From contig CAZYPW010000004.1 of the NCBI GenBank assembly GCA_964649615.1, forward strand, positions 9,153 to 73,152: 64,000 nt of DNA, given 5' to 3'. Under the pieces are notes generated by a model, which searched no databases, was not told the DNA's origin, and worked only from the letters and a program-made list of their open reading frames with translations. This document shows positions 2,054 to 55,294 of the stretch, piece after piece. Made by a program: the position numbers and the translations under genes. Within the stretch, counting starts at the first letter, position 1, and each line of letters opens with the position of its first letter. Source of the stretch: an uncultured Gammaproteobacteria bacterium (lineage in GTDB: Bacteria; Patescibacteriota; Microgenomatia; Daviesbacterales; UBA10151).

Positions 2054-2425
2054 ATGGCATATAACAAACTGACCCCTCAAGAAAAAGATATTATTGAAGG
2101 AAAAGGTACAGAGGCTCCTTTTACTGGAGAGTACGATGATTTTTATAAGGATGGGGTATTTATCTGTAAAAAATGTAATGCTCCCCTTTTTTCATCTGAG
2201 GCAAAATTTGATGCAGGTTGTGGCTGGCCTTCTTTTGATAGTGAATATCCTAATTCTTTAAAAAGACTGCCAGATCCAGATGAGAAAAGGACAGAAATTC
2301 AGTGTAATAATTGTGGAGCTCACTTAGGACATGAATTTTTAGGTGAACACTTAACAGATAAAAATGTCAGGCATTGTGTTAACTCCTTATCCATACATTT
2401 CATCCCTAAATCAAACACTCCTTAA
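2054..2425 (+). CDS. msrB: peptide-methionine (R)-S-oxide reductase MsrB
   Basis: Two CxxC zinc motifs (CKKCNAPLF ... CNNCGAHLGHEF), a GWPSF motif and the HLGHEF catalytic region typical of SelR/MsrB. About 123 aa. Confidence 0.9.
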   Translation: MAYNKLTPQEKDIIEGKGTEAPFTGEYDDFYKDGVFICKKCNAPLFSSEAKFDAGCGWPSFDSEYPNSLKRLPDPDEKRTEIQCNNCGAHLGHEFLGEHLTDKNVRHCVNSLSIHFIPKSNTP

Positions 2426-2428
2426 CTC

Positions 2429-2857
2429 TTATTCAACAATTAACATACCCTTCATGCCTGCAGCCCTGTGGCCTGGCACTCCACAGTAGAATTCAAACTC
2501 ACCTTTTTGATCTGCTACAAACTCCACAGTCTCTTCTTGTCCAGCATCAATCAGATTTGTTTTAATATTAAATTCATCAATCACAAAATTGTGGGTACCC
2601 ATGGTATTTTTGTACGTTACTCTGACAGTATCACCTTCCTTAACCCTTAATTCTGTAGGTTCAAATTTCAACCCTTTGCTGGTAACTGTTAGTTCAACTG
2701 TACCCATGGTGGATGACTGTGTGGCTGATGGTTCTTGAATCACCTCAGGTTCACCTGTTGGATTTGCTATTTGAGTTTGGGGTCTCATTAAAAGGAAATA
2801 TCCTCCTATTAAAACAGCCAATAAACCCACCACACCAACCATTATTTGTTTATTCAA
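2429..2857 (-). CDS. cupredoxin (plastocyanin/azurin-like type-1 blue copper protein), membrane anchored
   Basis: C-terminal YCGVPGHRAAGMKGMLIVE plus upstream HNFV give the His/Cys/His/Met type-1 Cu ligand pattern. N-terminal TM anchor. Probable TTG start at 2855-2857, preceded by a strong SD (aaggaggtga) on the minus strand. The ORF track extends to 2935. Confidence 0.75.
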   Translation of the reverse strand: MNKQIMVGVVGLLAVLIGGYFLLMRPQTQIANPTGEPEVIQEPSATQSSTMGTVELTVTSKGLKFEPTELRVKEGDTVRVTYKNTMGTHNFVIDEFNIKTNLIDAGQEETVEFVADQKGEFEFYCGVPGHRAAGMKGMLIVE

Positions 2858-3740: not shown

Positions 3741-4850
3741 ATGTGGAAAGTAGGAATTGGAATATTAATCCTTTTTATTTTGGCAATTGGATTAACTATT
3801 TATAGAAGTAATCCTCCTCAGAAATCTCAGACTCCATTTTTTGTTCAACCTTCCGCTACCATTTCACCTTCCCCAAGTGTAGAAACACCAAAGATAGAAG
3901 TGATTGCCCAAAATTTAGAAGTGCCATGGGCCCTTAGCTTTTTGCCAGATAATTCTATTTTAGTTACAGAAAGAAAAGGCACAGTTAAATTAGTAAAAAA
4001 TGGTGCAGTCTCAGAAATTGCTTTGGATATTAAAGTTAGGCAAACTGGAGAATCAGGGCTGCATGGAATTGCTGTGGACCCAAAGTACCCTCAAGAACCT
4101 TTTGTTTATCTCTACTATACATACTCTGCAGATTCTGATAACACTTTAAATAAAGTTTCCAAATTTACTTTTGAAGGTCCGCCAGCTGGTAGATTAAAAA
4201 ATGAGCAAGTTTTAGTTGATAAAATCCCAGGAGCGCTTTTTCATGATGGAGGAAGAATAAAATTTGGTCCCGCTTCGCGAGGCGAGCCAGATGGCGCACT
4301 TTTTGTAACCACAGGTGATGCAGCCAATCCATCTTTATCTCAAGATAAAAACTCGCTTGCTGGAAAAATCTTAAGAATTGTTAACTCTAAAGTTGAGATC
4401 TATTCCTATGGGCACAGAAATCCACAAGGCATTGCTTGGGATAATGAAGGCAAACTTTGGGAGACTGAACATGGTCAATCTGCCACAGATGAAGTTAATT
4501 TAATAGAAGAAGGCAAAAATTATGGTTGGCCGACAATTCGCGGAGATCAAACTAAAGATGGGATGGTTAGTCCAAGGCTTCACAGTGGTACAAATACCTG
4601 GGCTCCGGCCGGGATGGCTTTTTTCAATGGGTCTATTTATTATGGTGGATTACGTGGCCAGGCACTTTTCCAGCTGAAATTAGATAATATGGAATTAATA
4701 GAACACTTTAAAGGAGAGTTCGGCAAAATTCGGGATGTAATTTTAGGTCCGGATCAGATGCTTTATATTACCACTTCCAACAGAGATGGGAGAGGTAATC
4801 CTTTAGTGGAAGATGACCGAATAATTAAAGTTAACCCAGAAAAACTTTAA
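3741..4850 (+). CDS. PQQ-dependent soluble glucose/sorbosone dehydrogenase family beta-propeller protein, N-terminally anchored
   Basis: LEVPWALSFLPDNSILVTERKGTV and GGRIKFGP...DG.LFVTTGD are typical of sGDH/GSDH (PF07995). N-terminal TM segment. Confidence 0.75.
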   Translation: MWKVGIGILILFILAIGLTIYRSNPPQKSQTPFFVQPSATISPSPSVETPKIEVIAQNLEVPWALSFLPDNSILVTERKGTVKLVKNGAVSEIALDIKVRQTGESGLHGIAVDPKYPQEPFVYLYYTYSADSDNTLNKVSKFTFEGPPAGRLKNEQVLVDKIPGALFHDGGRIKFGPASRGEPDGALFVTTGDAANPSLSQDKNSLAGKILRIVNSKVEIYSYGHRNPQGIAWDNEGKLWETEHGQSATDEVNLIEEGKNYGWPTIRGDQTKDGMVSPRLHSGTNTWAPAGMAFFNGSIYYGGLRGQALFQLKLDNMELIEHFKGEFGKIRDVILGPDQMLYITTSNRDGRGNPLVEDDRIIKVNPEKL

Positions 4851-5985: not shown

Positions 5986-6968
5986 CCTCGCTCTTCATAC
6001 GTTCTGTGGGCCTTGGGAATCAGTTTTTCACTCATTGAATCGCCGCTATAGATACACTTAATTGCTTCTGCGAGTAGCGGCGCCACAGAAACAATTGTAA
6101 TTTTTGCATTATTTCTCATCTCATTTCTGACAGGCACGGTATCCGTAATAAAAATTCTCTCAAAATTTGCCTCTTTAATTCTTTTGACGGCAGGATCTGA
6201 AAAAAGTCCATGAGTTGCAACAGCTGATACAGTTTTTGCCCCTCTAGCTTTTATTAATCTTGCCGCCTCACAAATTGTCCCGGCAGTATCGATCATATCA
6301 TCAACAATTAATACATCCTTATTCTCAACTTCTCCAATCAAATCCAAAGCCTTAGATTCGTTTGGCTTTTGAGGGTTCCTTTCTTTATAAACTATTGCTA
6401 TGCCGTCAGCATTTAATAAATCTGCATAAAATGTGGCCTTTAAAACTCCACCTTTATCTGGTGAGGCAACTATCAAATTTTTGGGGAAAGTTTTTTGCAA
6501 AACCGGCAAAAAAGAGTAAGAGGCATATAAATTATCCCAAGGGATCTCTACAAATCCGGGTTCCTGTTCGCTGTGAATATCCACAGTCACAATCCTGTCT
6601 GCCCCGGCATATTCAATAAGCCTAGCAACAATCGAGGCACTGATAGGCACTCTTGGCCGATCTTTCCTGTCCTGTCTGGAATATCCGAAATAAGGAATAA
6701 TTGCAGAAACCTCAGTTGCAGAAGACCTTTTGGCAGCATCAATAATTAAAAAAAGTTCCATAATATTGTCGCTGACAGGAGGGCAGGTTGGCTGGATTAT
6801 GAAAACGTCCCGTTTTCTTAAATTTTCAGGAATAATAACTCGTTTTTCACCATCTGCAAAAGTAGAAATAGTCTCATCCACATTTTTCCCCAAAATTTGG
6901 CCAATTCTCTGCGCTAGCTTTAAATTAGCTGTTCCTGTTAATAAAACAAAACCATTATCATTGGCCAT
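5982..6968 (-). CDS. prs: ribose-phosphate pyrophosphokinase
   Basis: N-terminal RIGQILG region, PRPP-binding DMIDTAGT loop and C-terminal GAKTVSAVATHGLFS characteristic of Prs. Confidence 0.9.
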   Translation of the reverse strand: MANDNGFVLLTGTANLKLAQRIGQILGKNVDETISTFADGEKRVIIPENLRKRDVFIIQPTCPPVSDNIMELFLIIDAAKRSSATEVSAIIPYFGYSRQDRKDRPRVPISASIVARLIEYAGADRIVTVDIHSEQEPGFVEIPWDNLYASYSFLPVLQKTFPKNLIVASPDKGGVLKATFYADLLNADGIAIVYKERNPQKPNESKALDLIGEVENKDVLIVDDMIDTAGTICEAARLIKARGAKTVSAVATHGLFSDPAVKRIKEANFERIFITDTVPVRNEMRNNAKITIVSVAPLLAEAIKCIYSGDSMSEKLIPKAHRTYEERG

Positions 6969-6983
6969 AAAAGTTATACTTAA

Positions 6984-7919
6984 TTATACAATATTTTTTA
7001 GATTTTCTTTAATTCTTTTTTCTATTGGATATTCTCCTGCTTGGAATTTTTTACCAGTGATTTTTTCATAAATTGTGATATACCTTTCCGAAACTGCTTT
7101 TTGTAAGCTACTTGGCATTTTAGGAAGCCTGCCATCACCTTTATATCCGCGCCTGGCGTACCAAAGCCTTAAAAATTCTTTATCAAAATTTTCAGGTTCT
7201 AGTCCCTTTTTAAACCTATCTTGATATGTTCTTTTGACCCAAAATCTGGAAGAATCCGGAGTATGAATTTCATCAATTAAAATTAATTTTCCCTTATTAT
7301 CTAAGCCAAATTCATATTTAGTATCAACTAAAATAATTCCGGCTTTTTTACAAATTTTAGTCCCTCTTTCAAATAATCCTAGTGCAGCTAGCTTCATTTG
7401 TTTCCATATTTTTGGGGAAACAACCCGTTTTTGCAGAATATCTTCTTCCGTTAATCTTTGGTCATGGCCTGATTCTGCTTTGGTGGTTGGAGTTATGACC
7501 GGTTTTGAAAGTTTCTGGTTTTTTTGTAATCCTTGCGGAAATTTTATGCCGTAAATTACTCTTTCTCCTGCCTGATAAGACCCCCAAATAGAAGTATTGG
7601 TAATACCTGAAATATAACCCCTAACCACCATTTCTATGGGAATAGGAGTAGCATTTTTACCAATAGTCACATTTGGATCAGGGACTGAAATCATATGGTT
7701 AGGAATTATATCTTTTGTCTTTTCAAACCAAAATTGAGCCAATAAATTTAATACTGCACCTTTGTACGGGATATGCCCTAAGATAACATCAAATGCAGAG
7801 ATTCTGTCTGTAGTAATTAAAATTCTTCTTTGACCTTCAACAATATAGAAGTCCCTGACTTTACCGCTATGTTTTTCACCAAAACCTTTTAAATTTACAG
7901 TTTTTAATATCCTGCTCAT
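6984..7919 (-). CDS. purC: SAICAR synthetase PurC (long form)
   Basis: ILITTDRISAFD and GKVRDFY motifs. Length ~311 aa. Confidence 0.9.
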   Translation of the reverse strand: MSRILKTVNLKGFGEKHSGKVRDFYIVEGQRRILITTDRISAFDVILGHIPYKGAVLNLLAQFWFEKTKDIIPNHMISVPDPNVTIGKNATPIPIEMVVRGYISGITNTSIWGSYQAGERVIYGIKFPQGLQKNQKLSKPVITPTTKAESGHDQRLTEEDILQKRVVSPKIWKQMKLAALGLFERGTKICKKAGIILVDTKYEFGLDNKGKLILIDEIHTPDSSRFWVKRTYQDRFKKGLEPENFDKEFLRLWYARRGYKGDGRLPKMPSSLQKAVSERYITIYEKITGKKFQAGEYPIEKRIKENLKNIV

Positions 7920-9794: not shown

Positions 9795-11330
9795 TTAATG
9801 CCTAAATGCCCTCCTTTTTGAAAATACCATAGTAATCCCCAGCTCATCAGCAGCATCTATTGAGGCTTTATCATTTACAGACCCGCCTTGCTGCAAAATT
9901 GCAGATATATCATATTGTGCAGCCAATCGTACGCAGTCGTCAAATGGGAAAAAGCTATCCGAAATTAAGATACCTTCTTTAGCATAGTCTGCTGCTTGCT
10001 CCAAAGCAATTTTGGTTGCCCCCACTCTTGAAGTTTGACCCGAACCAATACCGCGAGTCTGCGGAATTTCTTTATCTATTACAATGACTGCATTAGACCT
10101 GACTGCTTTGACTGCTTTAAAACCAAATTTCATCAACTCTAATTGTTTTTCTGTAGGCTTGTTTTTAGTTACAACCTCCCAGTCCTTAAAACTATCTTCT
10201 ATATTATCATCAAAATCCTGAAGTAATGCTGCACCGGAAAAATATTTAAGGTCCCATTTTTCTGATCTTACAGAAGGGATCTCACCGAAGGTATAAATCC
10301 CCATGCTCTTTCTGACCTTTTTCAATAACTCTAACGCTTGATCGCTTATACCCGGTACTGCCACAATATCTATATTTCCTTCTTTCTCATTTTTAAAAGT
10401 AGCAACCACTTTAGCAGCAGCTTCGTCCATTTTTTTATTTATCACCATCACTCCCCCAAAAGCAGAAACAGGATCTGCTTTAACAGCTCTATCTAGCGCT
10501 TCCTCTGCATCTTTCCCGGTTGCTATTCCGCAAGGGCTTAAATGTTTGATCACACAAGCCGCAGCTTCTTTAAATTGCCTGACTGTTTCCAGACCTGCAT
10601 AAATATCACCAATATTGGTACCGGATAATTCCCTGCCCCAAAGGTGTTTTAATTTTGAGAGAGGTGAATTTGTTTTCGGTAATAAATAAAATGCGCCCTG
10701 CTGATGAGGATTTTCTCCATAACGTAGAATATTTGTTTTTCGCAACGGAATTGTTATTTCGTTGGGAAACTCCTGCCTGCCGGCAGGCAGATCTCCTTCG
10801 GAAAAATAATTTCCAATTTGGCTGTCATAAAAAGATAAATGATAAAAAGATTTGGCTGCCAGCTCTTTTCTTTTTTGCACGCTCTTTATAGCATCATCCA
10901 ACTGACCATAATCATTTGAATCTACCATCACTACTACATTTTCATAATTTTTACCGGCTGCTCTAATCATTGTTGGACCCCCCACATCTATATTTTCAAC
11001 ACCGGGTTTCTGTTCAAATGGATAAAGATTACAAACAACAACATCAATTTGTGGAACACCTAATTTTTTTGCTTCTTCAATATGTTTAGGATTTTTCCGG
11101 TCAAACAATATGCCACTTTCTATTTGAAAAGAAATGGTTTTCATCCTACCATCAAAGCAGTCTCTGGGGTTTCCGGTAATTTCTTCAATTGGAGTAACTT
11201 CAATCCCACTTTTTTTAAGTGTTTCAAAAGTCCCGCCTGTGGAGATTATAGTGTAGCCATTTTTTACTAAAACTTTTGCAAAATCTTCTATGCCGGATTT
11301 GTCATATACACTTAAAAGCGCATACTTCAT
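9795..11330 (-). CDS. purH: bifunctional AICAR transformylase / IMP cyclohydrolase PurH
   Basis: N-terminal MGS-like domain (ALLSVYDKSGIEDFAK...ISTGGT) plus a C-terminal AICARFT domain. 511 aa. Confidence 0.9.
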   Translation of the reverse strand: MKYALLSVYDKSGIEDFAKVLVKNGYTIISTGGTFETLKKSGIEVTPIEEITGNPRDCFDGRMKTISFQIESGILFDRKNPKHIEEAKKLGVPQIDVVVCNLYPFEQKPGVENIDVGGPTMIRAAGKNYENVVVMVDSNDYGQLDDAIKSVQKRKELAAKSFYHLSFYDSQIGNYFSEGDLPAGRQEFPNEITIPLRKTNILRYGENPHQQGAFYLLPKTNSPLSKLKHLWGRELSGTNIGDIYAGLETVRQFKEAAACVIKHLSPCGIATGKDAEEALDRAVKADPVSAFGGVMVINKKMDEAAAKVVATFKNEKEGNIDIVAVPGISDQALELLKKVRKSMGIYTFGEIPSVRSEKWDLKYFSGAALLQDFDDNIEDSFKDWEVVTKNKPTEKQLELMKFGFKAVKAVRSNAVIVIDKEIPQTRGIGSGQTSRVGATKIALEQAADYAKEGILISDSFFPFDDCVRLAAQYDISAILQQGGSVNDKASIDAADELGITMVFSKRRAFRH

Positions 11331-12454
11331 GTTAGTATTTTTCTAAGTTCTCCTTTTTCTATTGCCTCTTTAATTTCCATTGCTACTCGCCTTCCCATAG
11401 AAATATTTTTCCCGTATAAATACCCGCTATATGGAGTGGCAAAAATCCCGGGACTTCCCGGCATTCGCGGGGAAACATCAAAAACAATAATTTCCTTTTT
11501 AGGAGGGCCAGGAATGATTATTGTTTGTAAACCAAACGGCCCTATGACTCCTGGCTTATATAGTTTCTGAGAAGCTTTCACAAATCTTTCTCCCATTGCA
11601 AATGCATCTTCTAGTAGAGATTCCAGTACAGTCACTGATACATGGCCTGCCTCTTCAAAAGTTATCCCATACTTATCTCTAACAAGTTTATAATCATCCG
11701 GCGCTACCTTCGTATATCCTTCTGCATTAGTTTGCCTTCTTGTATCTGTTCCTATTAATTCAACTCTTTTATGCAAAGGAGAATAGAAATAATTGAAGTT
11801 AACTTGAACACCTACTAAGTATTCTTCTAATATGGCTCTATCAAGAGCTTCTTGAGTGATTCTACCCTGTCCAATTAATTCTTGTGACCGAGAATAAAAA
11901 GTTTCAGGGGAGTTAACTATAAAAAATCCCCTCTCGAAACCAAGATATTTAGCCATTACTTTCACAACACAGGGGCCATCGATTTCGCTTGGATTTTTAA
12001 ATTGTTTCGGATATCTAATCCCTGCCTCTTCCATAATTTTATATTGATCCACATTATTCCCAGTTCCTCGCTCTTCACATTTTAATAAAAACTTGTTTCC
12101 AAACATGGGGACTTTAAATTTTTTCTCAATTGCATTGTAATCGTTTATATAAACCTCAAAAGACCTGTGGGGAATAAATATGGCATTTCTTTTTAAGAGT
12201 TCTTTTTGAACTTTCTCCGATAAAATATCTTTGAAATTTTCTAACTCAATAACTTCATCAACACAACCTATTTCTCCATTACTTTTGTAATATTTGGCAT
12301 AGGTTTTATCTCTACCCTTTTGCACAATTACCAAAGTTTTAAAACCTAAATCTTTAGCTCCCCTGCAAACATCTAACGCAGAGTGACTACCTAGAACGGC
12401 TATTGTAATATCAGAAAGTTTTAAGTTTTGAATTGTAGTTTTGAGTTTTGACAT
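11327..12454 (-). CDS. purP: archaeal-type 5-formaminoimidazole-4-carboxamide ribonucleotide synthetase PurP (paralogue 1)
   Basis: ATP-grasp PurP family (DUF1246/DUF1297). Motifs LGSHSALD, FYSPL..VEL.G.D.R..TN, PFGLQ and MGRRVAMEIK match PurP as recalled from Methanocaldococcus. Confidence 0.75.
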   Translation of the reverse strand: MSKLKTTIQNLKLSDITIAVLGSHSALDVCRGAKDLGFKTLVIVQKGRDKTYAKYYKSNGEIGCVDEVIELENFKDILSEKVQKELLKRNAIFIPHRSFEVYINDYNAIEKKFKVPMFGNKFLLKCEERGTGNNVDQYKIMEEAGIRYPKQFKNPSEIDGPCVVKVMAKYLGFERGFFIVNSPETFYSRSQELIGQGRITQEALDRAILEEYLVGVQVNFNYFYSPLHKRVELIGTDTRRQTNAEGYTKVAPDDYKLVRDKYGITFEEAGHVSVTVLESLLEDAFAMGERFVKASQKLYKPGVIGPFGLQTIIIPGPPKKEIIVFDVSPRMPGSPGIFATPYSGYLYGKNISMGRRVAMEIKEAIEKGELRKILT

Positions 12455-12467
12455 TTGAGTTTTGAGT

Positions 12468-13484
12468 TTAATCTAAAACCTCCTTTAGCTTATTTTGCGA
12501 AATTGCATTCTTAATCTCGCGGGCGATACGGCGTCCTGTAGACATTGGTTCATCATACAGTAAATATGTATATGGAGATCCATTAATAAAACAATTTGTC
12601 CCTGCAACTATTCGGGCTGAGATTTCTATTACATAAATTTCCTCAGAAGATGTAATAATTGTTTCCAGACAAAACGGCCCAAATAATCCTTTCGGAGAAA
12701 CTATTTTTTGAGATGTTTCAATAACTCTTTGAGCCATATCCACAGCATCTGCAACCATAGATTCCCGAACAGCCATTGGAATGTTTGCAACAACTTCAAA
12801 AGATGGTTCTATATTTAACCCTCTTTGGTTTTTAGCAGGAATCCTACCTAATGAGTCAACATTTGTCTCATATCTTTTATCAACACTCATTAACTCTACT
12901 TTTTTGGTTAACGGTGAATAAAAGAAATGAAAATAAACAGGTACTCCTATTACATATTCCTGAACCATAAACCGCTCTTCCGAAAAGGTTTTTAATTTTT
13001 CATCAAGTTCTTTCTGATTTCTGGCAGTAAAATACCCCTTCCCACCGGCAGCACCATATGATTTTACAATCACCGGCCTATCAGTCTTATCACCTTTTCT
13101 AAATCTGTGGGGAACCTTAATTCCTGCTTCTTCCATCCATATTCTTTGCATCTTTCTGTCCTCCTCCCAATCTAGTACTTTCTTATTTCCAAAATAAGGA
13201 ACTTTCATCTTTTTATTTTCATCCATTCCTAAATATGCCACAAAAGATCCATGTGGAATTATTATGCAATTATCTTTAAGTAACTTTCTTTCTAAGTTTG
13301 GGAAATCGCGCCAGGATTTAATTTTTATTATTTCATCAATGAAGTTTTCGTATGATTTATAAAGTGGAATTCTATCAGAAGTACAAACTACAGCAGTTTT
13401 AAAACCCTCCTGTTTTGCACCCTTGAGAATCTGCAGCGCAGAGTGAGAACCTAAAGTGACAATAGTTATATTTTTAGTTCCCAT
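12468..13484 (-). CDS. purP: archaeal-type PurP family protein (paralogue 2)
   Basis: Same family motifs as paralogue 1 (LGSHSALQILKGAKQEGF, FFYSPLTKKVELMSVDKRYETN, PFCLE, STGRRIAREIKN). About 45% identity to its neighbour by eye. Confidence 0.75.
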   Translation of the reverse strand: MGTKNITIVTLGSHSALQILKGAKQEGFKTAVVCTSDRIPLYKSYENFIDEIIKIKSWRDFPNLERKLLKDNCIIIPHGSFVAYLGMDENKKMKVPYFGNKKVLDWEEDRKMQRIWMEEAGIKVPHRFRKGDKTDRPVIVKSYGAAGGKGYFTARNQKELDEKLKTFSEERFMVQEYVIGVPVYFHFFYSPLTKKVELMSVDKRYETNVDSLGRIPAKNQRGLNIEPSFEVVANIPMAVRESMVADAVDMAQRVIETSQKIVSPKGLFGPFCLETIITSSEEIYVIEISARIVAGTNCFINGSPYTYLLYDEPMSTGRRIAREIKNAISQNKLKEVLD

Positions 13485-17630: not shown

Positions 17631-20383
17631 CCGAATATTTCCTTCATTGGTTTCTGCCAAGCATCTTGTAATTGCTTCATATCCGCGCTAAATAATCCCT
17701 TAACTCCTAATTTCTCCTCTTTTATCGTTTTCCCTAATATCTTAAAAGGTATTCCTTTGAATAATTTCTTAGCATTTTCCTCATCATCTACTTCAACAAT
17801 AAAACATCCTGCTGTTTCGTTAAATAGAAAATCACCTCGAAGGTGGGCTTTGACTCCTTCGAAGTAAAGCTTTACTCCACAATTTCCTCCAACTGCCATT
17901 TCAAAAATTGCAGTAATTAATCCTCCTTCTGAAACATCATGAGACGCTAAAACCTGTCCACTAATAATTGCTTTGTGCACTTTCTTCAAAACCTTAGGTA
18001 GTAGTTTTAAATCCACTTTTGGTACACCTCCCAGGTGGGCCATGACTCCTGGGAGGTGAGCTGCTTGGCCTACCAAAACTACAGTTGATCCCGTCTTTTT
18101 AAAATCAGAAGATACTGTTTTTTTAACATCCGGTATTTTTCCGAAAACTGACATAACTAAAGTCGGTGGGCTATGTATTATTACTCCATTAGACCCCCGA
18201 TAGGTGGCAAATAAACTGTCTTTTCCGGAAATCACAGGCAAATTTAGCGCTTTCATAAAATCAACTACTGCATCTACAGCTCTATCTAATTTTCCCAACC
18301 ATTCTGCATCAGGATATGGCCATATATAGTTGTTTATCAAAGAGGCATTCTTATAATCTCCACCAACAGCAACATAATTTGAGATTGCCTCAGTTGCAGA
18401 CCAGATACTTCCCCAGTAAGAATCCTCTCTTGTTAACTTTGGATTAAGTCCGTGGGAAACAACTACTCCATAAGGTTTATCTAAAATTGGTTTTACAATG
18501 GCTGCATCTTGAGGTCCATCCATCCCTTCTCCGGCATATGGATGTAGCGCATTTGTTCCTTGAACATTGTGATCATAAAGCCTTAATATTGGTTCTTTAG
18601 AATTTACATCACCTGATGCTAAAACTTTTTCTAAAATCTTAGCCCAATCCACTTTGTCATTCTGAACGATTAGTGAAGAATCCCTAGATTTAATCTTGAG
18701 ATTCCTCGCTTCGCTCGGAATGACAGCGGGAGAAGTTGCCTTCATTACCCTTTGAGGCAATCCCCCAAACAAAAACTTCATTTCCAAATCTCCTACTTTT
18801 TCCTTACCATAAAAAACTTGTAACTTTTTACTTCCATCAAACTGCGCAATTTCAGTTGCTTCACTATTATATTTGTTAGCAATTTCCAAAAACTTTTTAA
18901 GATTCTTCTTAGGCAAGATTACCAACATTCTTTCTTGTGATTCTGAAACCCAAATCTCCCATGGTGCAAGTCCCGGATATTTAACAGGAGCCTTTTCTAG
19001 GTGTACCTTTACTCCTAACTTTTCTCCCATCTCTCCAATAGCAGATGAAAATCCTCCAGCTCCCAAATCCTGTACAGCCCTTATTAAATTTTTATCTCTA
19101 GCTTCTAAAATGGCGTCAAACATCCTTTTTTCCTCAATGGCATTACCAATTTGCACAGCAGTGGTATTAACTTCTATAGTTTTTTCGCTCATTACAGCAG
19201 AGGAAAAAGTTGCCCCATGTATCCCATCTCTGCCAGTCCTTCCTCCAACTACTACTCCTATATCACCAATCTCAGGAGAACCTTTTTTAGCTTTGCTTTT
19301 TGGTAAGATTCCATAAGCTCCCACTAACACAATTGGCTTGGCTTTAAAATCCTCATCAAAATGAAATGATCCATTGTTGGTAGGGATTCCTATTCTGTTT
19401 CCATAATCTTTCACTGCTGTAACTACTCTTTTTAAAATATAGTCAGGTGGTAAAGTTCCAGCAGGCAGTTTATTTTTATCTAAGCCAGGAGGGGCTAAAC
19501 AAAAGATATCTGTAGAAACTATAGCCTTTGCACCTTGCCCTGTGGCCACCACATCTCTAAAAACTCCCCCGGATCCGGTCATAGCTCCTCCGTATGGTTC
19601 AATCGCAGATGGAGCATTATGGGTTTCTGCTTTACCATTAATGGCCCATCCCCCGTAAAAATCCATTACTCCGGCATTATCAACAAATGCAGAAACTATA
19701 TTTTTATTGTGTTTCAAAGCTTCTTTTTTAAGACGAGTAAATAAAGGCTCTTTTTCTTTTCCATCAATAATTAGTTTGGCTTTAAAAGTTTTGTGAGCAC
19801 AATGTTCACTCCATGTTTGAGCAATAGTTTCCAGCTCCAAATCAGTTGGATCTCTTTTAATATTTTTAAAACAACTTTGAATTGTTTTCATTTCCTCAAG
19901 ATTTAAAAATAGTTTATACCTTGATAATTCCATTAATTCTTCACCAGTCATATTTCTTAATTTGATAATAGTAGTTTTACCTGAAGTTCCTTTAATTATT
20001 AATGTTTTCGGCTCTTCTGTAACTATATGTTCAACCATAGGATTAAAAAGGCCTTTTAAAACTTCTTTGCTGGGTGAATGAAGAAAACCATATTCATGAG
20101 AAGAATCGGCTGCAATTAATTTAATTCCTAAATCTTCTGAGGCTTTTAGAATAGATCCTACCTCAGGATTCATTACCCCAGGTTTGTAAGCAATTTCTAT
20201 GATTTCTTTAGCGCCTTCTATTATTGGAGAATTTAAAGTATATGTTTGAATAATACTTTCACATAAAAATTTTTCAGCTAATTCCTTGGCTTTCTTTTCT
20301 GAAACCCCTTCTAACCTGTATACCTTAGCTTGTTTTACATCTCCCTTATTCTCAATACTTTTAACCCTGACAACTTGTATCAT
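17627..20383 (-). CDS. purL: FGAM synthase PurS-PurL fusion (phosphoribosylformylglycinamidine synthase II with N-terminal PurS domain)
   Basis: A ~80-aa PurS-like N-terminus (MIQVVRVKSIENKG...) is fused to PurL AIRS-like tandem domains (EPYGGAMTGSGGVFRD, DLGAGGFSSAIGEM). The preferred ATG at 20383 immediately follows the purD stop. Confidence 0.9.
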   Translation of the reverse strand: MIQVVRVKSIENKGDVKQAKVYRLEGVSEKKAKELAEKFLCESIIQTYTLNSPIIEGAKEIIEIAYKPGVMNPEVGSILKASEDLGIKLIAADSSHEYGFLHSPSKEVLKGLFNPMVEHIVTEEPKTLIIKGTSGKTTIIKLRNMTGEELMELSRYKLFLNLEEMKTIQSCFKNIKRDPTDLELETIAQTWSEHCAHKTFKAKLIIDGKEKEPLFTRLKKEALKHNKNIVSAFVDNAGVMDFYGGWAINGKAETHNAPSAIEPYGGAMTGSGGVFRDVVATGQGAKAIVSTDIFCLAPPGLDKNKLPAGTLPPDYILKRVVTAVKDYGNRIGIPTNNGSFHFDEDFKAKPIVLVGAYGILPKSKAKKGSPEIGDIGVVVGGRTGRDGIHGATFSSAVMSEKTIEVNTTAVQIGNAIEEKRMFDAILEARDKNLIRAVQDLGAGGFSSAIGEMGEKLGVKVHLEKAPVKYPGLAPWEIWVSESQERMLVILPKKNLKKFLEIANKYNSEATEIAQFDGSKKLQVFYGKEKVGDLEMKFLFGGLPQRVMKATSPAVIPSEARNLKIKSRDSSLIVQNDKVDWAKILEKVLASGDVNSKEPILRLYDHNVQGTNALHPYAGEGMDGPQDAAIVKPILDKPYGVVVSHGLNPKLTREDSYWGSIWSATEAISNYVAVGGDYKNASLINNYIWPYPDAEWLGKLDRAVDAVVDFMKALNLPVISGKDSLFATYRGSNGVIIHSPPTLVMSVFGKIPDVKKTVSSDFKKTGSTVVLVGQAAHLPGVMAHLGGVPKVDLKLLPKVLKKVHKAIISGQVLASHDVSEGGLITAIFEMAVGGNCGVKLYFEGVKAHLRGDFLFNETAGCFIVEVDDEENAKKLFKGIPFKILGKTIKEEKLGVKGLFSADMKQLQDAWQKPMKEIFG
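18655..18725. repeat. 71-nt palindromic element inserted in-frame inside purL coding sequence
   Basis: tgtcattctgaacgattagtgaagaatccctagatttaatcttgagattcctcgcttcgctcggaatgaca shares termini and inner arms with 16767-16848. The gtcat...atgac core is 69 nt (23 codons) and encodes a linker ...ATSPAVIPSEARNLKIKSRDSSLIVQNDK... without breaking the frame. Confidence 0.6.
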
Positions 20384-47365: not shown

Positions 47366-48379
47366 CTATCCTGACATTTTACCAGTTTTCGGATCATAAA
47401 GCCCACCGGCAACAGTTAACTCTGCTTTAAGCATTGGATAAGGATCATAACCCTCAAGCTCTACCATTTCCGGTTTAAAATCATCAATAGATTTTAATTT
47501 TCCATTTATTTTTATCTTAGGAAATGGACGGGGCTTTCTTTTTAATTGCTCTTTTACTTGCGGAATATGATTTTCATAAATATGCGCATCTCCAAAAGTA
47601 TGGATAAATTCTCCTGGTTTAAGTCCGGCAATCTTTGCCAAAACTATTGTAAGTAATGCGTAGCTTGCAATATTGAAAGGCACCCCCAAAAATAAATCAG
47701 AAGAGCGTTGATATAATTGCAGAGATAATTTTCCATTCCTGTTTGAAATTTGAAACATATTATGACAAATTGGAAATCTTGATGCATCTTCATTTGTAGC
47801 CATGGTATATAAATATTCCGGATTCCAGGAATTTACAATTAAGTTTTTTGCATCCGGGTCATCTTTCATCTCCTGTAATATCCACTTAAGTTGATCTATA
47901 GTTCGACCCTTTTTTCTGGCCTGCCCTGAGCTTGTCGAATGGGTTGGCCATTTTCTCCACATCTCTCCATAAATTCTTGGTAATTCCCCGTGCTCTTTAG
48001 CAAACTTTTTATCTGTTTTTATTTTCTCTATAAATTCTTCCTTACTTTTGACTTTTGACTTTTGACTTTTGACTTTGTATATCTTATACGGATAATCATC
48101 CCAAATATGCACATTTTGATCTACCAAATATTTAATATTGGTCTGTCCTGACATAAACCAATAGAGCTCATGTATTACTCCTTTCCAGTAAACTTTTTTG
48201 GTAGTTAAAAGCGGGAATCCGCCAGCTGGCGGACTTTGGGACAAATCATATCTTGTTTGCCTGCCAAAAAGAGAGTACAGCACAATCCCTGTTCCCCGAT
48301 CCACTTTCCTTTCTCCATGTTCCAAGGCTTCCTTTAATAAATCTAAGTATTGATATTCAGGATGTTTCTGCTTTACCAT
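47366..48379 (-). CDS. thyA: thymidylate synthase ThyA carrying several short in-frame insertions
   Basis: GFPLLTTKK and HELYWF motifs and the catalytic-Cys region (FPICHNMFQ). Insertions relative to the E. coli ThyA sequence as recalled: SPPAG (palindrome), KVKSQKSKVKSK (heptamer repeat) and HSTSSGQARKK (block shared with proS). Confidence 0.9.
   Translation of the reverse strand: MVKQKHPEYQYLDLLKEALEHGERKVDRGTGIVLYSLFGRQTRYDLSQSPPAGGFPLLTTKKVYWKGVIHELYWFMSGQTNIKYLVDQNVHIWDDYPYKIYKVKSQKSKVKSKEEFIEKIKTDKKFAKEHGELPRIYGEMWRKWPTHSTSSGQARKKGRTIDQLKWILQEMKDDPDAKNLIVNSWNPEYLYTMATNEDASRFPICHNMFQISNRNGKLSLQLYQRSSDLFLGVPFNIASYALLTIVLAKIAGLKPGEFIHTFGDAHIYENHIPQVKEQLKRKPRPFPKIKINGKLKSIDDFKPEMVELEGYDPYPMLKAELTVAGGLYDPKTGKMSG
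48044..48076. repeat. (CTTTTGA)x4 heptamer tandem repeat inside thyA
   Basis: acttttgacttttgacttttgacttttgactttg. Encodes KVKSQKSKVKSK on the coding strand. Confidence 0.6.
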
Positions 48380-48545: not shown

Positions 48546-49109
48546 CTACACTTGTCTTTCTACTTTCTTCGGGCTGACTCTACCTCCCTGGTGTTGCCCC
48601 CTATACTTTATAGTTTTTCCTTCTATCTTATGAAAAATTATATTACAAATTCTGGCACCCAGCTGTAACTTTACGGGAAAAGGAGAAAGATTTGTGAGTC
48701 CCATCGTAAGCTTACCCACATATCCCGGATCTGTTTTGCTATTAAGCAGCAAAAGCCCTGATCTAAAAAGGGAAGTTCGCGGGTGAAGTATTGGCATTAA
48801 ATCTTCCGGTGTATTTATCTCCTCATATGTTTGCACCAGATAATATTCTCCAGGCTTTATTGTTACCTCCAAAACCTTCCCTTCCACAAACTCTGCAACT
48901 AATTTTGTTTCCACTCCCTTCCTGTTACCTAAAACCTGTCCACTGTCCACTTCTATAAAAGCCCCGCCTTTTATGATTTTATGCACAGAACCTAACCTTA
49001 AATCCACCCCCACACCCTCTGGATAATTTAGTTCTCTTTTACCCAGGTTTTTTATTAACCCATACTTTTTTATTCTTTTGTGGATTTGATTAATTCCAAG
49101 TACAGACAT
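48546..49109 (-). CDS. dCTP deaminase/dUTPase-family protein (second paralogue)
   Basis: Dcd/dUTPase-fold motifs RTSLFRSGL and DPGYVGKLTMGL. ATG start at 49109 preferred over the GTG start at 49136. Confidence 0.7.
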   Translation of the reverse strand: MSVLGINQIHKRIKKYGLIKNLGKRELNYPEGVGVDLRLGSVHKIIKGGAFIEVDSGQVLGNRKGVETKLVAEFVEGKVLEVTIKPGEYYLVQTYEEINTPEDLMPILHPRTSLFRSGLLLLNSKTDPGYVGKLTMGLTNLSPFPVKLQLGARICNIIFHKIEGKTIKYRGQHQGGRVSPKKVERQV

Positions 49110-49126
49110 AGTAAATTTATAAGGAG

Positions 49127-49210
49127 GCGAAGTCACGAGTTAGAAAAAATGTTGAGGATTTTGTGCAGAGTGACTTAATGATTATGAATCGCTAAACCAC
49201 AAAATTCTCA
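49127..49210. repeat. intergenic hairpin element, family member Y
   Basis: gcgaagtcacgag...gaggattttgtg[32 nt]cacaaaattctc has an 11/12 stem. Shares gcgaagtc, gattttgtg/cacaaaat and taatgatta blocks with 48402-48470. Confidence 0.5.
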
Positions 49211-49226: not shown

Positions 49227-49892
49227 CTACCGTGCGAGCGATTTTTTCAACCGTGACGAGCCGACTTTCTTTCTTCCCATTATATTTGAAACCTCTGGCA
49301 AATCTGAACCACCATACCTGTTATTAGGAGAATTTTTATATGATCTTGAAACAGGAGCAGACAGCTTTTCAAAAGAAAAAGCACAAATTGGAGCCCCTTC
49401 ATAAATAACCACTCTTTTGCCTTTTAAAAATGTGCCGAATTCCAAAACCGGATGTCCATCCCAACCTGGATCAAACCTGGCTGCAGTGGAATGTACCACC
49501 ACTCCCAGTCTGGCCAAAGAGGATTTTCCATGCAGGTGTCCCACAATATTATCTGGTAAAGTTAATTTTTCTTTAGTGGTAGCAATCACAAAATCTTTAT
49601 CAGATAGAACAAAAGGCTGGCCCGGCTTAAGTTCTATAAATTTCATCATAGATTCCATCTCTTCTTTGCTGGTGTGTTTGGTATCAATAATATCCCAACC
49701 ATCACCGGTAAAAACCCGCAGTTTATTCCCTAAATGAAAATCTATGGTCACCTCATCAACGGAATCCTCCCAATCCTTTGGCAAAGGATTAATTTTGATA
49801 ATCCCTTTCTTGATATGTTCTCTAATTGCCCAATCAGGCAGGGTCCCTACCATATTTGGATCAGAGATTTTCTTGCGTGTCTTCTTTGGCAT
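49227..49892 (-). CDS. dcd: dCTP deaminase
   Basis: DFHLGNKLRVF and SSLARLGVVVHSTAARFDPGWDGHPVLEF are typical of Dcd. Confidence 0.8.
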   Translation of the reverse strand: MPKKTRKKISDPNMVGTLPDWAIREHIKKGIIKINPLPKDWEDSVDEVTIDFHLGNKLRVFTGDGWDIIDTKHTSKEEMESMMKFIELKPGQPFVLSDKDFVIATTKEKLTLPDNIVGHLHGKSSLARLGVVVHSTAARFDPGWDGHPVLEFGTFLKGKRVVIYEGAPICAFSFEKLSAPVSRSYKNSPNNRYGGSDLPEVSNIMGRKKVGSSRLKKSLAR

Positions 49893-53787: not shown

Positions 53788-54276
53788 TTATTTAACTTCT
53801 GATAATTTATCAAGATAAATATTTAAATAGTTGATATCATCCTCCAGATATTTATATTCCAAATTTTGCGTATTTTTCGGATAAGCTACATATAAATCAT
53901 TTAATATTTTTTTATGATTTGTGAATTGGGTTTTTACTGCAGCCACTTTATCTTTTAAATTATTTGCAATTATTAAATCTGTTATTTGTCCTGCTGTTGT
54001 TGAATACCTCAAAGATGAGGGTAGCAAAAAGTCATAGCTTTTATGATCCAAAATAGCCGCAATTTCTGCTAATCTGGCATCGAGCAAAGAACTCATATAA
54101 TCTAATTTATCTGTCGGGTTAGATTTAAAGTTAAGATATATTTTTTCCTGAACTCTTTTTAAACTAAATAACAGCGGGTTATCCGGAGCGGCGCTTTGGG
54201 ATAAGATCAAAGATAAAGCAGTAATAGCTAAAATAACTATTAATATAACTTGAATCCTGGTTTGCATTTTTTTCAT
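53788..54276 (-). CDS. hypothetical N-terminally anchored/secreted protein
   Basis: 162 aa with signal/anchor IQVILIVILAITALSLILS. No recognised domain. Confidence 0.45.
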   Translation of the reverse strand: MKKMQTRIQVILIVILAITALSLILSQSAAPDNPLLFSLKRVQEKIYLNFKSNPTDKLDYMSSLLDARLAEIAAILDHKSYDFLLPSSLRYSTTAGQITDLIIANNLKDKVAAVKTQFTNHKKILNDLYVAYPKNTQNLEYKYLEDDINYLNIYLDKLSEVK

Positions 54277-54947
54277 ACTTTTAGTGCGCGAAGCGCGCGA
54301 GCTTTGCTTAGAATCTTTAAAATCTCTCTGTGGATTTTCTCTTCGGGGTTCATTTTATCATTCTCCATACAATTTATAACAACCCAATTTTTTTCTGACT
54401 GGGAAAGTTCCAGATAAATTTGGGCCGCTTTTTCTTCATGTTCCAAACTTTTTTCATGAATATCAGTCAGATGAGCTTTTAAGGCATTCTCTTGTCCCAT
54501 TTTTGGATCAACATTTAAAAGAATCACTAAATCTGGTTTTGGCATGCCATTAGTTTGATATTCCAGCTGATCCACCCATTTTATAAAATCTTCTCTCTTG
54601 CTCTCATCTAAATTTGCTCCCAAGTGGGCTTTAGATGCAGAAACATATCTGTTAGCAATAATTAATTTTCCATTTTGCAGCCAGTTTTCAATTTCTGGTT
54701 TTGCTAAAAGTCTATCCGCTGCATAAGCTTCAGCTATCCAATATGGATCCACCTTATTTATAGCCCCAAATTCTCCCTCCAAATATCTTTTAACTAATTT
54801 TCCATATTCATTTTCCTGATATCTTGGAAAGCTTATCACCTCAAAAGGAATGCTTTTTTCCTGAAAATATTTACTTAAAAATTCAATCTGGGTAGTTTTC
54901 CCAGATCCATCTATCCCATCTATAACAATAAGCAAACCTTTGTTCAT
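54273..54947 (-). CDS. tmk: thymidylate kinase
   Basis: LLIVIDGIDGSGKTTQ P-loop, DRY-like ANRYVSAS and a lid region. Start placed at MNKGL; the ORF track extends 33 nt further. Confidence 0.85.
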   Translation of the reverse strand: MNKGLLIVIDGIDGSGKTTQIEFLSKYFQEKSIPFEVISFPRYQENEYGKLVKRYLEGEFGAINKVDPYWIAEAYAADRLLAKPEIENWLQNGKLIIANRYVSASKAHLGANLDESKREDFIKWVDQLEYQTNGMPKPDLVILLNVDPKMGQENALKAHLTDIHEKSLEHEEKAAQIYLELSQSEKNWVVINCMENDKMNPEEKIHREILKILSKARALRALKV

Positions 54948-55294
54948 AATATAACCTCTAATCCATTCTTGGAATAACAACCAATAAATGGCTGCTTTTT
55001 TCTCCTTAAAGTATTTATAGCACTTATAATCTCGTCCATAAAGGGAATAATCTCTTCTGGTTTAACATTTGGAAAGTCCAAAACCATCACACTTACCTTT
55101 TCCTCGCCTTCAATCGATTTTAGATAATCTTTATCAAAACTTAAAATAATCCGTTTTTCAACAAGTGCTTTTGTTCTAACTGTTGAATCAGAAACACCAT
55201 GTAGAGATCGCTGGATTCTTTTAACATCATGTCTTCTCTTTTGTAAATAAGAAATTAAAGTTGGAGGAAAATTTTCATCAGCGAGTAATTTCAT
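54944..55294 (-). CDS. DUF5615-family (PIN-like) putative toxin
   Basis: MKLLADENFPPTLISYL N-terminus is typical of the DUF5615 partner of DUF433 proteins. Overlaps the upstream DUF433 gene. Confidence 0.55.
   Translation of the reverse strand: MKLLADENFPPTLISYLQKRRHDVKRIQRSLHGVSDSTVRTKALVEKRIILSFDKDYLKSIEGEEKVSVMVLDFPNVKPEEIIPFMDEIISAINTLRRKKQPFIGCYSKNGLEVIL

Follow-up and report, generated by a model that had tools for sequence, protein, structure and literature searches.

This analysis concerns a GC-rich palindrome within the thymidylate synthase gene (thyA) of a member of the Patescibacteriota (GTDB order Daviesbacterales), located on a stretch of 64,000 nucleotides (nt) of contig CAZYPW010000004.1 (assembly GCA_964649615.1, positions 9,153 to 73,152 of the forward strand), here called the window, together with the copies of the same palindrome, here called family A, in other genes and genomes. 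The features at the locus, in window coordinates, are the following.

47,366–48,379, minus strand: thyA, the thymidylate synthase host gene, 337 amino acids, full-length match to PF00303.
48,218–48,233, strand not applicable: family A palindrome TCCGCCAGCTGGCGGA, perfect over 16 bp; a single strand forms a hairpin of 6-bp stem and AGCT loop.
48,221–48,235, minus strand: extra 15 nt, AGT CCG CCA GCT GGC (SPPAG), delimited by codon alignment of filled versus empty alleles.

The 16-mer TCCGCCAGCTGGCGGA is its own reverse complement and has a GC content of 75%, against 35.7% for the window; the coding strand across it reads caa AGT CCG CCA GCT GGC GGA ttc (Q-SPPAGG-F). Both elements of a preliminary description of this site, namely a perfect GC-rich 16-bp palindrome and its in-frame reading as SPPAGG, are thus confirmed. 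The codon alignment compared filled alleles, which carry the insert (the window, L001, L003, L004, and L005), with empty ones (L128, L129, L006, L007, and L130), and the codon that follows the 15-nt insert, GGA (Gly), completes the palindrome. By folding, the DNA hairpin has an energy of −5.9 kcal/mol, and in the thyA mRNA it lies within a 60-nt stretch with a minimum free energy of −14.2 kcal/mol. ThyA aligns with PF00303 over profile positions 2–266 of 266 (E = 1.6e-95) and with the solved structure 3uwl (E = 6e-82), the insert being the sole gap within that segment, and the protein is 100% identical to one annotated in a Candidatus Daviesbacteria genome, present in two assemblies. Only two palindromes in the window are perfect over 14 bp or more and have at least 70% GC (those in thyA and purH), where second-order Markov shuffles give 0.15, and two matches to the family A 16-mer with at most three mismatches occur where 0.05 are expected.

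Among the 120 best ThyA homologues (76–100% identity), 114 read DLS[QKEA..]GFPLLTTK without an insert, and DLSQ-SPPAG-GFP is confined to P0001/P0002 (the window's own protein), P0008, P0011, P0045, and P0071; solved thymidylate synthases likewise have a five-residue gap opposite SPPAG. In a neighbor-joining tree computed without the insert columns, the carriers do not group together: the smallest clade holding all of them comprises 98 of the 120 sequences, and their nearest neighbors are non-carriers (P0008–P0016, d = 0.065; P0071–P0048, 0.09; P0001–P0005, 0.08). SPPAG is a real five-residue insertion, as the preliminary description had proposed by comparison with Escherichia coli ThyA; the orthologue alignment shows that it is not ancestral and that its carriers are polyphyletic.

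At the DNA level, five filled thyA alleles share AGTCCGCCAGCTGGCGGATTC exactly (CAA AGT CCG CCA GCT GGC GGA TTC CC), whereas synonymous variation is found immediately outside it (TCC/TCT/TCG/TCA on one side, CCG/CCC/CCT on the other). Because the insert DNA is identical while adjoining synonymous sites vary, the thyA flanks agree with the gene tree, unlike the insert. That the insert is surrounded by long recombination tracts was considered and rejected, since the flanks track gene phylogeny rather than insert state. The nearest empty alleles read TCC CAA GGT TTC CCG (L128) and TCA AAA GGA TTT CCG (L129), and three further filled alleles from metagenomes have CTA, GAA, or CAA before AGT. No decayed thyA insert was seen; alleles carry either a perfect copy or nothing.

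The preliminary description had linked the thyA palindrome with cases in purH, sGDH, and purL. The corresponding features of the window are the following.

10,772–10,791, minus strand: family B palindrome in purH, the 20-mer CCTGCCTGCCGGCAGGCAGG with one mismatch; perfect 18-bp core CTGCCTGCCGGCAGGCAG at 10,773–10,790.
4,178–4,193, plus strand: decayed family A copy TCCGCCAGCTGGTAGA in the sGDH gene (3,741–4,850), two mismatches, phase PPAGR.
19,451–19,468, minus strand: possible decayed family B copy CTGCCTGCTGGAACTTTA in purL, 11/18 matches, reads LPAGT; low confidence.

The purH case holds in full, in that its perfect 18-bp palindrome shows the same patchy, polyphyletic, and DNA-identical pattern as that of thyA. 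The site in purH (9,795–11,330) reads D-LPAGRQ-E; 116 of 120 PurH homologues are without the seven-residue insert, its carriers are polyphyletic, and the insert DNA is identical in L194 and absent from L195. In total, 14 family B copies or near-copies were found, 12 of them in loci that had been retrieved for family A alone (copies outside the window include those in L023, L025, L026, L040, L045, L102, and L105). The two families lie 8–26 nt apart in L026 and L023, and a family B copy sits at a terminator-like apex in L045 (7,053). The sGDH case, a PQQ-dependent (pyrroloquinoline quinone) sugar dehydrogenase gene matching PF07995, is sustained as the same 16-mer in phase PPAGR, but it is imperfect. 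P0330 has PPAGG in the same loop, about 113 of 120 sGDH homologues are without an insert, and a few others have apparently decayed inserts (NTPGDG, NTPHLG, DPSDGR). The purL case is weak, amounting to the 11/18 resemblance to the purH palindrome listed above.

Family A recurs widely in other genes and genomes. Another thyA, that of P0013/L130, carries the 16-mer at a second site (EKIRI-SPPAGG-FAKKWG), and L001/L002 carry it in the neighboring dcd/dut-like gene (N-PPAGG-E), whose window orthologue is without it. A metagenome scan with a thyA-type 22-mer recovered two diverged uvrB genes (YFP-SPPAGG-FL.IIDESH), two uvrC-like genes (ITK-SPPAGG-FP..), a glyS-like gene, and three orthologues of one unnamed gene (the uvrB, uvrC-like, and glyS-like identities were assigned from conserved motifs, not by family search); flanking synonymous differences are present there too. 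An extended thyA-type unit (AAGT..TTC) was considered as a master copy and discarded, as it also occurs in other genes in a number compatible, by rough estimate, with chance flanks.

Identical copies of the 16-mer were found in L001–L005, in at least 120 genome loci (one genome per species), and in metagenome and viral loci. The 80 titles listed from the genome scan include 31 Patescibacteria (of many classes) and 20 Bacteroidota (including the isolate Mucilaginibacter flavidus), alongside Elusimicrobiota, Cloacimonadota, Bdellovibrionales, and more. About 70% of the genome loci have a GC content below 0.48, whereas base composition alone would make the 16-mer about 40 times likelier per base at 65% GC than at 40% (our own arithmetic). 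Phages were rejected as the vector: 45 of the 55 viral loci with the 16-mer have a GC content of at least 0.48 and look like chance occurrences (a composition-matched control palindrome gave eight loci, but contains CTAG and is a poor control). Some copies are nested in larger repeats, namely a lineage-specific repeat of about 200–260 bp with at least six units in a Cyclobacteriaceae locus (L024, 4,980–8,000) and 'cgtcattgcgag...' CGTC-type repeats in Mucilaginibacter (L062, 4,200–4,300 and 7,000–7,160); in L120 (6,600–6,850), an inverted pair is made up of two copies whose flanks match and which lie about 225 bp apart. Other perfect palindromes, GC-rich, 16–26 bp long, and each met once, were also encountered (L003, 3,900–3,919; L194, 7,490–7,505; L064, 1,051–1,076; L074, 9–28; L121, 1,360–1,379), examples being AGCGCGTCTGCAGACGCGCT, which a folC-like gene carries in frame, and GGTCGCCGCGGCGACC, which lies between purA and purP; these may be additional families.

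The anatomy of family A was derived from 690 kb of low-GC loci, in which about 99 copies are exact (ascertainment accounts for about 85 of these) and 13 have one to three mismatches, the latter including loop variants that keep the stem (TCCGCCAACTGGCGGA, three times; TCCGCCAGtGGCGGA, once). The flanks of 98 copies are complementary no more than expected by chance (24% at the first position), from which it follows that the unit is exactly 16 bp, and the sole flank signal is an A-rich, T-poor base at position −1. A longer element was rejected, there being no conservation past 16 bp in flank composition or complementarity. There are also 28 solo 8-mer half-sites, about a third of them from decayed copies, where about eight would arise by chance (our own arithmetic); half-sites as transposon ends were rejected, a paired arrangement not being evident, although no search aimed at one was made.

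Approximately half of the copies in the low-GC loci (49 of 101) lie inside open reading frames (ORFs) of at least 120 codons, and their phase is strongly biased, with 38 read as PPAGG, seven as RQLA, and four as SASWR (p = 3e-10). The preliminary observation that such inserts encode P-A-G from self-complementary triplets is correct, and is explained by GC-rich self-complementary codons together with selection for one reading phase. The remaining copies are in short ORFs or in none, often right past gene ends or between convergent genes, and some intergenic copies cap longer T-flanked hairpins (L052, 3,767; L091, 2,260; L073).

Copies also occur in structural RNA genes. The 16-mer forms hairpin tips of RNase P RNA in three Bacteroidota, with two copies in a single ribozyme gene in the first of them, as follows.

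L080, 4,274–4,680: RNase P RNA gene with the 16-mer at the tips of P3 and P12.
L077, 2,699–3,091: RNase P RNA gene with the 16-mer at the tip of P12.
L099, 480–873: RNase P RNA gene with the 16-mer at the tip of the hairpin after P8.

Rfam searches of 56 loci at the gathering thresholds matched the element itself to no family. In partial tRNA copies, the 16-mer takes the place of loop or stem bases. In L069 (2,094–2,530), two partial 5′ copies of tRNA-Asn, in which AAT of the D-loop is replaced by the 16-mer, stand beside an intact tRNA-Asn and bracket a small GIY-YIG nuclease ORF (2,214–2,480, minus strand); in L064 (3,985–4,196), 8 nt of a partial tRNA-Lys copy have given way to the 16-mer, and this copy is accompanied by a truncated GIY-YIG-like start. 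This arrangement looks like a tRNA-targeting mini-cassette. A linked gene was sought in the neighborhoods of the copies: all-against-all BLAST clustering of 141 ORFs beside copies (about 8 kb per genome) gave no recurrent neighbor gene other than the small GIY-YIG ORF (three cases).

The gene neighborhoods in the window and in its relatives were also inspected. Within thyA, a heptamer tandem repeat at 48,045–48,075 (minus strand; four gactttt units when read on the plus strand, caaaagt in coding orientation) specifies KSQKSKVKSK in a variable Lys-rich ThyA insert, and similar A-rich repeats of 6–7 nt stand beside 16-mer copies in L090 (7,377), L111 (3,380), L041 (2,689), and L121 (1,570). Upstream of thyA-folA are two tandem dCTP deaminase/dUTPase-like genes (48,546–49,136 and 49,227–49,892), and the order dcd-dcd-thyA-folA-rpsB-tsf-frr is kept in the related Microgenomates loci L001, L006, L007, and L128. 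A gene for a 23S_rRNA_IVP four-helix bundle lies between thyA and folA in L003 (11,015–11,392) and upstream of tmk in L004 (1,262–1,633), and L007 has a PIN toxin and a small ORF between thyA and folA (6,828–7,540), which suggests that the thyA-folA neighborhood of these relatives is a hotspot for small mobile cassettes. Two ORFs (11,327–12,454 and 12,468–13,484) adjoin purH, the first of which matches DUF1246 and DUF1297 (PurP-type), the archaeal-type FAICAR (formylaminoimidazole carboxamide ribonucleotide) synthetase, and two purP-type genes flank purH in L194 and L195. If both window ORFs are purP, this Candidate Phyla Radiation genome appears to encode both routes of aminoimidazole carboxamide ribonucleotide formylation. 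Elsewhere in the window, a GC-rich hairpin (GCGCG-AAG-CGCGC, in gtgcgcgaagcgcgcgagc, 54,284–54,302) that has no relation to families A and B lies close to the junction of two minus-strand ORFs (53,788–54,276 and 54,273–54,980).

Family A occurs in coding genes, structural RNA genes, and spacers with sharp 16-bp edges; in thyA and purH, non-sister orthologues either have the insert, with identical DNA, or lack it, the site being precisely the same; and copies decay where they are old, as in sGDH. On these grounds we consider it probable, with some reserve, that the palindrome represents a single copy of a dispersed repeat that is non-autonomous, forms hairpins, resembles repetitive extragenic palindromes (REPs) and Rickettsia palindromic elements (RPEs), has at least one sister family (B), and has been copied to new sites in low-GC bacterial genomes. 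The preliminary proposal of a palindromic insertion or excision process in place of ordinary coding evolution is sustained by patchy carriers, invariant insert DNA, and recurrence.

As to mechanism, copies would enter at the DNA level, replacing a few target bases and leaving no fixed target-site duplication, by one of three candidate routes: transposition of a single-stranded DNA hairpin (of the HUH or REP-associated tyrosine transposase (RAYT) kind), insertion of filler DNA where breaks occur, or template switching in DNA prone to hairpins. The mobilizing enzyme would act in trans, and selection would purge genic copies except those with a net length that is a multiple of three, the PPAGG phase, whose residues are small and flexible, and a tolerant surface loop. 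Copying followed by such selection explains why the phase is biased and the frame clean, why the sGDH copy has decayed, and why unrelated genes are affected. ThyA may as a result carry SPPAG as a neutral passenger, in the loop that precedes its FPLLTTK segment. Variable net length change and replaced target bases favor break-associated or template-switch insertion, or single-stranded hairpin transposition, over classical cut-and-paste. The insertion mechanism is potentially novel.

Several observations weigh against the reading as a dispersed repeat. No mobilizing enzyme, donor copy, or insertion intermediate was found, and no fixed target-site duplication either: a flanking direct repeat of at least 8 nt is present in only 5 of 99 copies, and the longest word shared between the 18-nt flanks of those 99 copies averages 4.2 nt, versus 3.7 nt in shuffled pairings. 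Net length changes appear to vary, the 16-mer adding 15 nt in thyA, the 20-mer adding 21 nt in purH, and other insertions seemingly adding 6 to 13 nt. Overall, hairpin tips are preferred only as a tendency (48% versus 38%, p = 0.06 in the folding test), for which reason a general targeting of such tips was rejected, although it is clear in RNase P RNA and at certain terminators. The genome scan gives a lower bound, of at least 120 loci. The perfect dyad includes a central 4 bp that a hairpin does not need, which hints at recognition by a dimeric protein, and neutral selfish spread does not easily explain why copies are identical to the letter across phyla, unless this spread is very recent or constrained. 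Finally, the junction, with AG before the 16-mer and TTC after it, is identical in eight non-sister thyA alleles, which conflicts with sloppy insertion, and junctions are similarly constant in purH, uvrB, and uvrC-like genes. Constant junctions imply a precise site- or structure-directed process, a single origin with co-conversion tracts of about 20 nt, or repeated precise loss.

A bolder proposal, which we put forward tentatively and regard as rather doubtful, is that ultra-short (15–21 nt) perfect-palindrome mobile elements form a new class, identical across phyla, that has repeatedly and independently entered the same precise positions of essential genes (thyA, purH, uvrB, and uvrC) and of RNase P RNA hairpins. 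Repeated precise entry, if true, would imply sequence- or structure-directed insertion or homing machinery that acts in trans and possibly preserves the reading frame.

The palindrome could instead owe its conservation to a role in RNA, as a stable, orientation-independent hairpin serving as terminator, mRNA stabilizer, or processing site, with genic copies as by-products of spread by recombination. This would suit the copies between convergent genes at the apices of T-tract hairpins (L052, 3,767; L091, 2,260; and, for family B, L045, 7,053), the P3 and P12 tips in RNase P RNA, and the variants TCCGCCAACTGGCGGA and TCCGCCAGtGGCGGA, which keep the stem and alter the loop. A self-complementary loop is not needed for such a role, however, yet about 99 exact copies stand against four loop variants; roughly half of the copies fall within long ORFs, in which no hairpin role is evident, and insertion is not explained by the role alone. 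We consider this explanation unlikely.

A little less likely still is recognition of the 16-mer by a conserved protein that binds DNA as a homodimer (as the site of a regulator or of a protein of the ParB/Noc type, or as the core site of restriction-modification or of a recombinase), selection keeping it wherever it arises, genes included. Perfect two-fold symmetry that extends to the central AGCT, the preponderance of exact over mismatched copies in the low-GC loci (about 99, of which about 85 by ascertainment, versus 13), invariance of the insert DNA in diverged thyA alleles, and identity across phyla speak for protein recognition, as does the presence of family A in two neighboring genes of one pathway in L001, thyA and a dcd-like gene. 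Placement is at odds with it: copies are found at the hairpin tips of RNase P RNA, at the apices of terminators, in partial tRNAs, inside other repeats, and in uvrB, uvrC-like, glyS-like, and type IX secretion system tail-like coding sequences, their position relative to gene starts is inconsistent, and no coherent regulon emerges. A and B, moreover, lie only 8–26 nt apart in L026 and L023, the sGDH copy is decaying, and a binding site does not explain how a 15-nt insertion comes to occupy one site in non-sister alleles.

It is improbable that the palindrome is the footprint of a larger cassette, such as a small GIY-YIG or 23S-IVP gene, lost by recombination between two bounding palindromes. 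Such a cassette is what L069 resembles, where the 16-mer, embedded in partial tRNA-Asn, stands on either side of the GIY-YIG ORF, and L064 has a similar remnant; all three GIY-YIG ORFs in the loci are within 150 nt of a copy, and 23S_rRNA_IVP genes stand in the thyA neighborhood of L003 and L004. In thyA, purH, uvrB, or RNase P RNA, however, a cassette would inactivate an essential gene, only three of about 100 copies are near a gene of this kind, and no thyA or purH allele with a cassette was seen among 240 homologues.

Ordinary lineage-specific evolution of the ThyA loop with a chance palindrome, or an assembly artifact, has a negligible probability and is excluded by the observations: GC-rich Pro/Ala/Gly codons are partly self-complementary, making short palindromes possible in such loops, and many of the sequences are from metagenome assemblies, but the 16-mer is present in at least five independent thyA assemblies, in two assemblies of the source genome, in an isolate genome (L062), and at hundreds of loci, the frame is preserved with a strong phase bias, and an exact 16-mer in the window would arise by chance with a probability of about 1e-6 (our own arithmetic, from base composition). 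The binding-site, RNA-hairpin, and cassette explanations account for fewer observations than does a dispersed repeat.

If the reading of family A as a dispersed repeat is true, essential proteins and ribozymes in the reduced genomes of Patescibacteria, and in Bacteroidota, have been remodeled by a selfish hairpin of 16 bases that annotation pipelines do not report. It would also explain odd PPAGG and LPAGRQ loop insertions in protein alignments, make family A a tractable marker of recent cross-phylum horizontal exchange, and point to an enzyme that places a defined short duplex at precise DNA sites. The mechanism would be testable in the cultivable carrier M. flavidus.

The exact strings of families A and B, and 'PPAGG', were not found in the literature searched, and keyword searches gave REP/RPE and organelle analogues only. 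REPs, the nearest described kind, are short GC-rich dispersed palindromic repeats, often downstream of genes, with some families in several species; some copies of the GTAG- and CGTC-tagged kinds are wholly inside functional ORFs, notably the DNA repair genes uvrA and uvrB, and for CGTC REPs a dedicated transposase is likewise not known (Di Nocera et al., 2013; PMC3733652, which also mentions RPEs). Families A and B are similarly short GC-rich palindromes, in part intragenic, and present in several species. They differ from REPs in being perfect palindromes (16 and 20 bp) that have no GTAG/CGTC tag and no conserved tail (98 family A copies), whereas REPs are imperfect, 20–40 bp long with a loop, and number from tens to thousands of mostly extragenic copies per genome. 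Density is low here (one exact and one decayed family A copy and one family B copy in 64 kb), about half of the family A copies are genic, copies are identical across phyla, and non-sister orthologues are hit at one and the same site; the 16-mer of L062, L072, and L076 lies inside repeats that look CGTC-type and is not itself one. In REP/REPtron systems, a gene for a RAYT (Y1/HUH transposase) is flanked by the repeats.

RPEs, which also come close and were reportedly described by Ogata and colleagues in 2000, are about 100–150 bp long, add 30–50 residues, and are confined to Rickettsia. The resemblance lies in in-frame insertion into essential genes and RNA genes, tolerated at the protein surface and patchy among orthologues (thyA, purH, and sGDH; uvrB and uvrC-like genes), whereas the unit here is 16–20 bp, adds five to seven residues, and has hosts across phyla. 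The mitochondrial GC clusters of yeasts, other fungi, and sponges are organellar, 30–50 bp long, and species-specific, often with short AG/TAG flanking repeats. Those of yeasts are a functional analogue. They too are GC-rich palindromic mini-elements of AT-rich genomes, optional among strains, that are found in spacers and rRNA variable loops and occasionally in frame; in the present case, no organelle is involved and no consistent flanking repeat is seen. HIP1 of cyanobacteria and the DNA uptake sequences of Neisseria and Haemophilus are lineage-specific motifs of 8–12 bp with hundreds to thousands of copies per genome that arise mostly by substitution. These are likewise short over-represented motifs that occur in genes with a preferred phase and as inverted pairs at terminators, and HIP1 is palindromic, but families A and B are inserted, cross-phylum, and 16–20 bp long. 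MITEs, transposable elements of the miniature inverted-repeat type, span 70–300 bp with terminal inverted repeats and a fixed-length duplication, in contrast to a 16-bp unit with flanking repeats of at least 8 nt in 5 of 99 copies, and the dyad symmetry shared with dimeric operators is not accompanied by consistent promoter placement or a regulon. Families A and B therefore fail the defining features of REPs, MITEs, and RPEs and work like such elements without belonging to them; what is unusual here is extreme shortness combined with perfect symmetry, identity across phyla, placement at RNase P RNA tips, and occupation of the same codon in non-sister orthologues.

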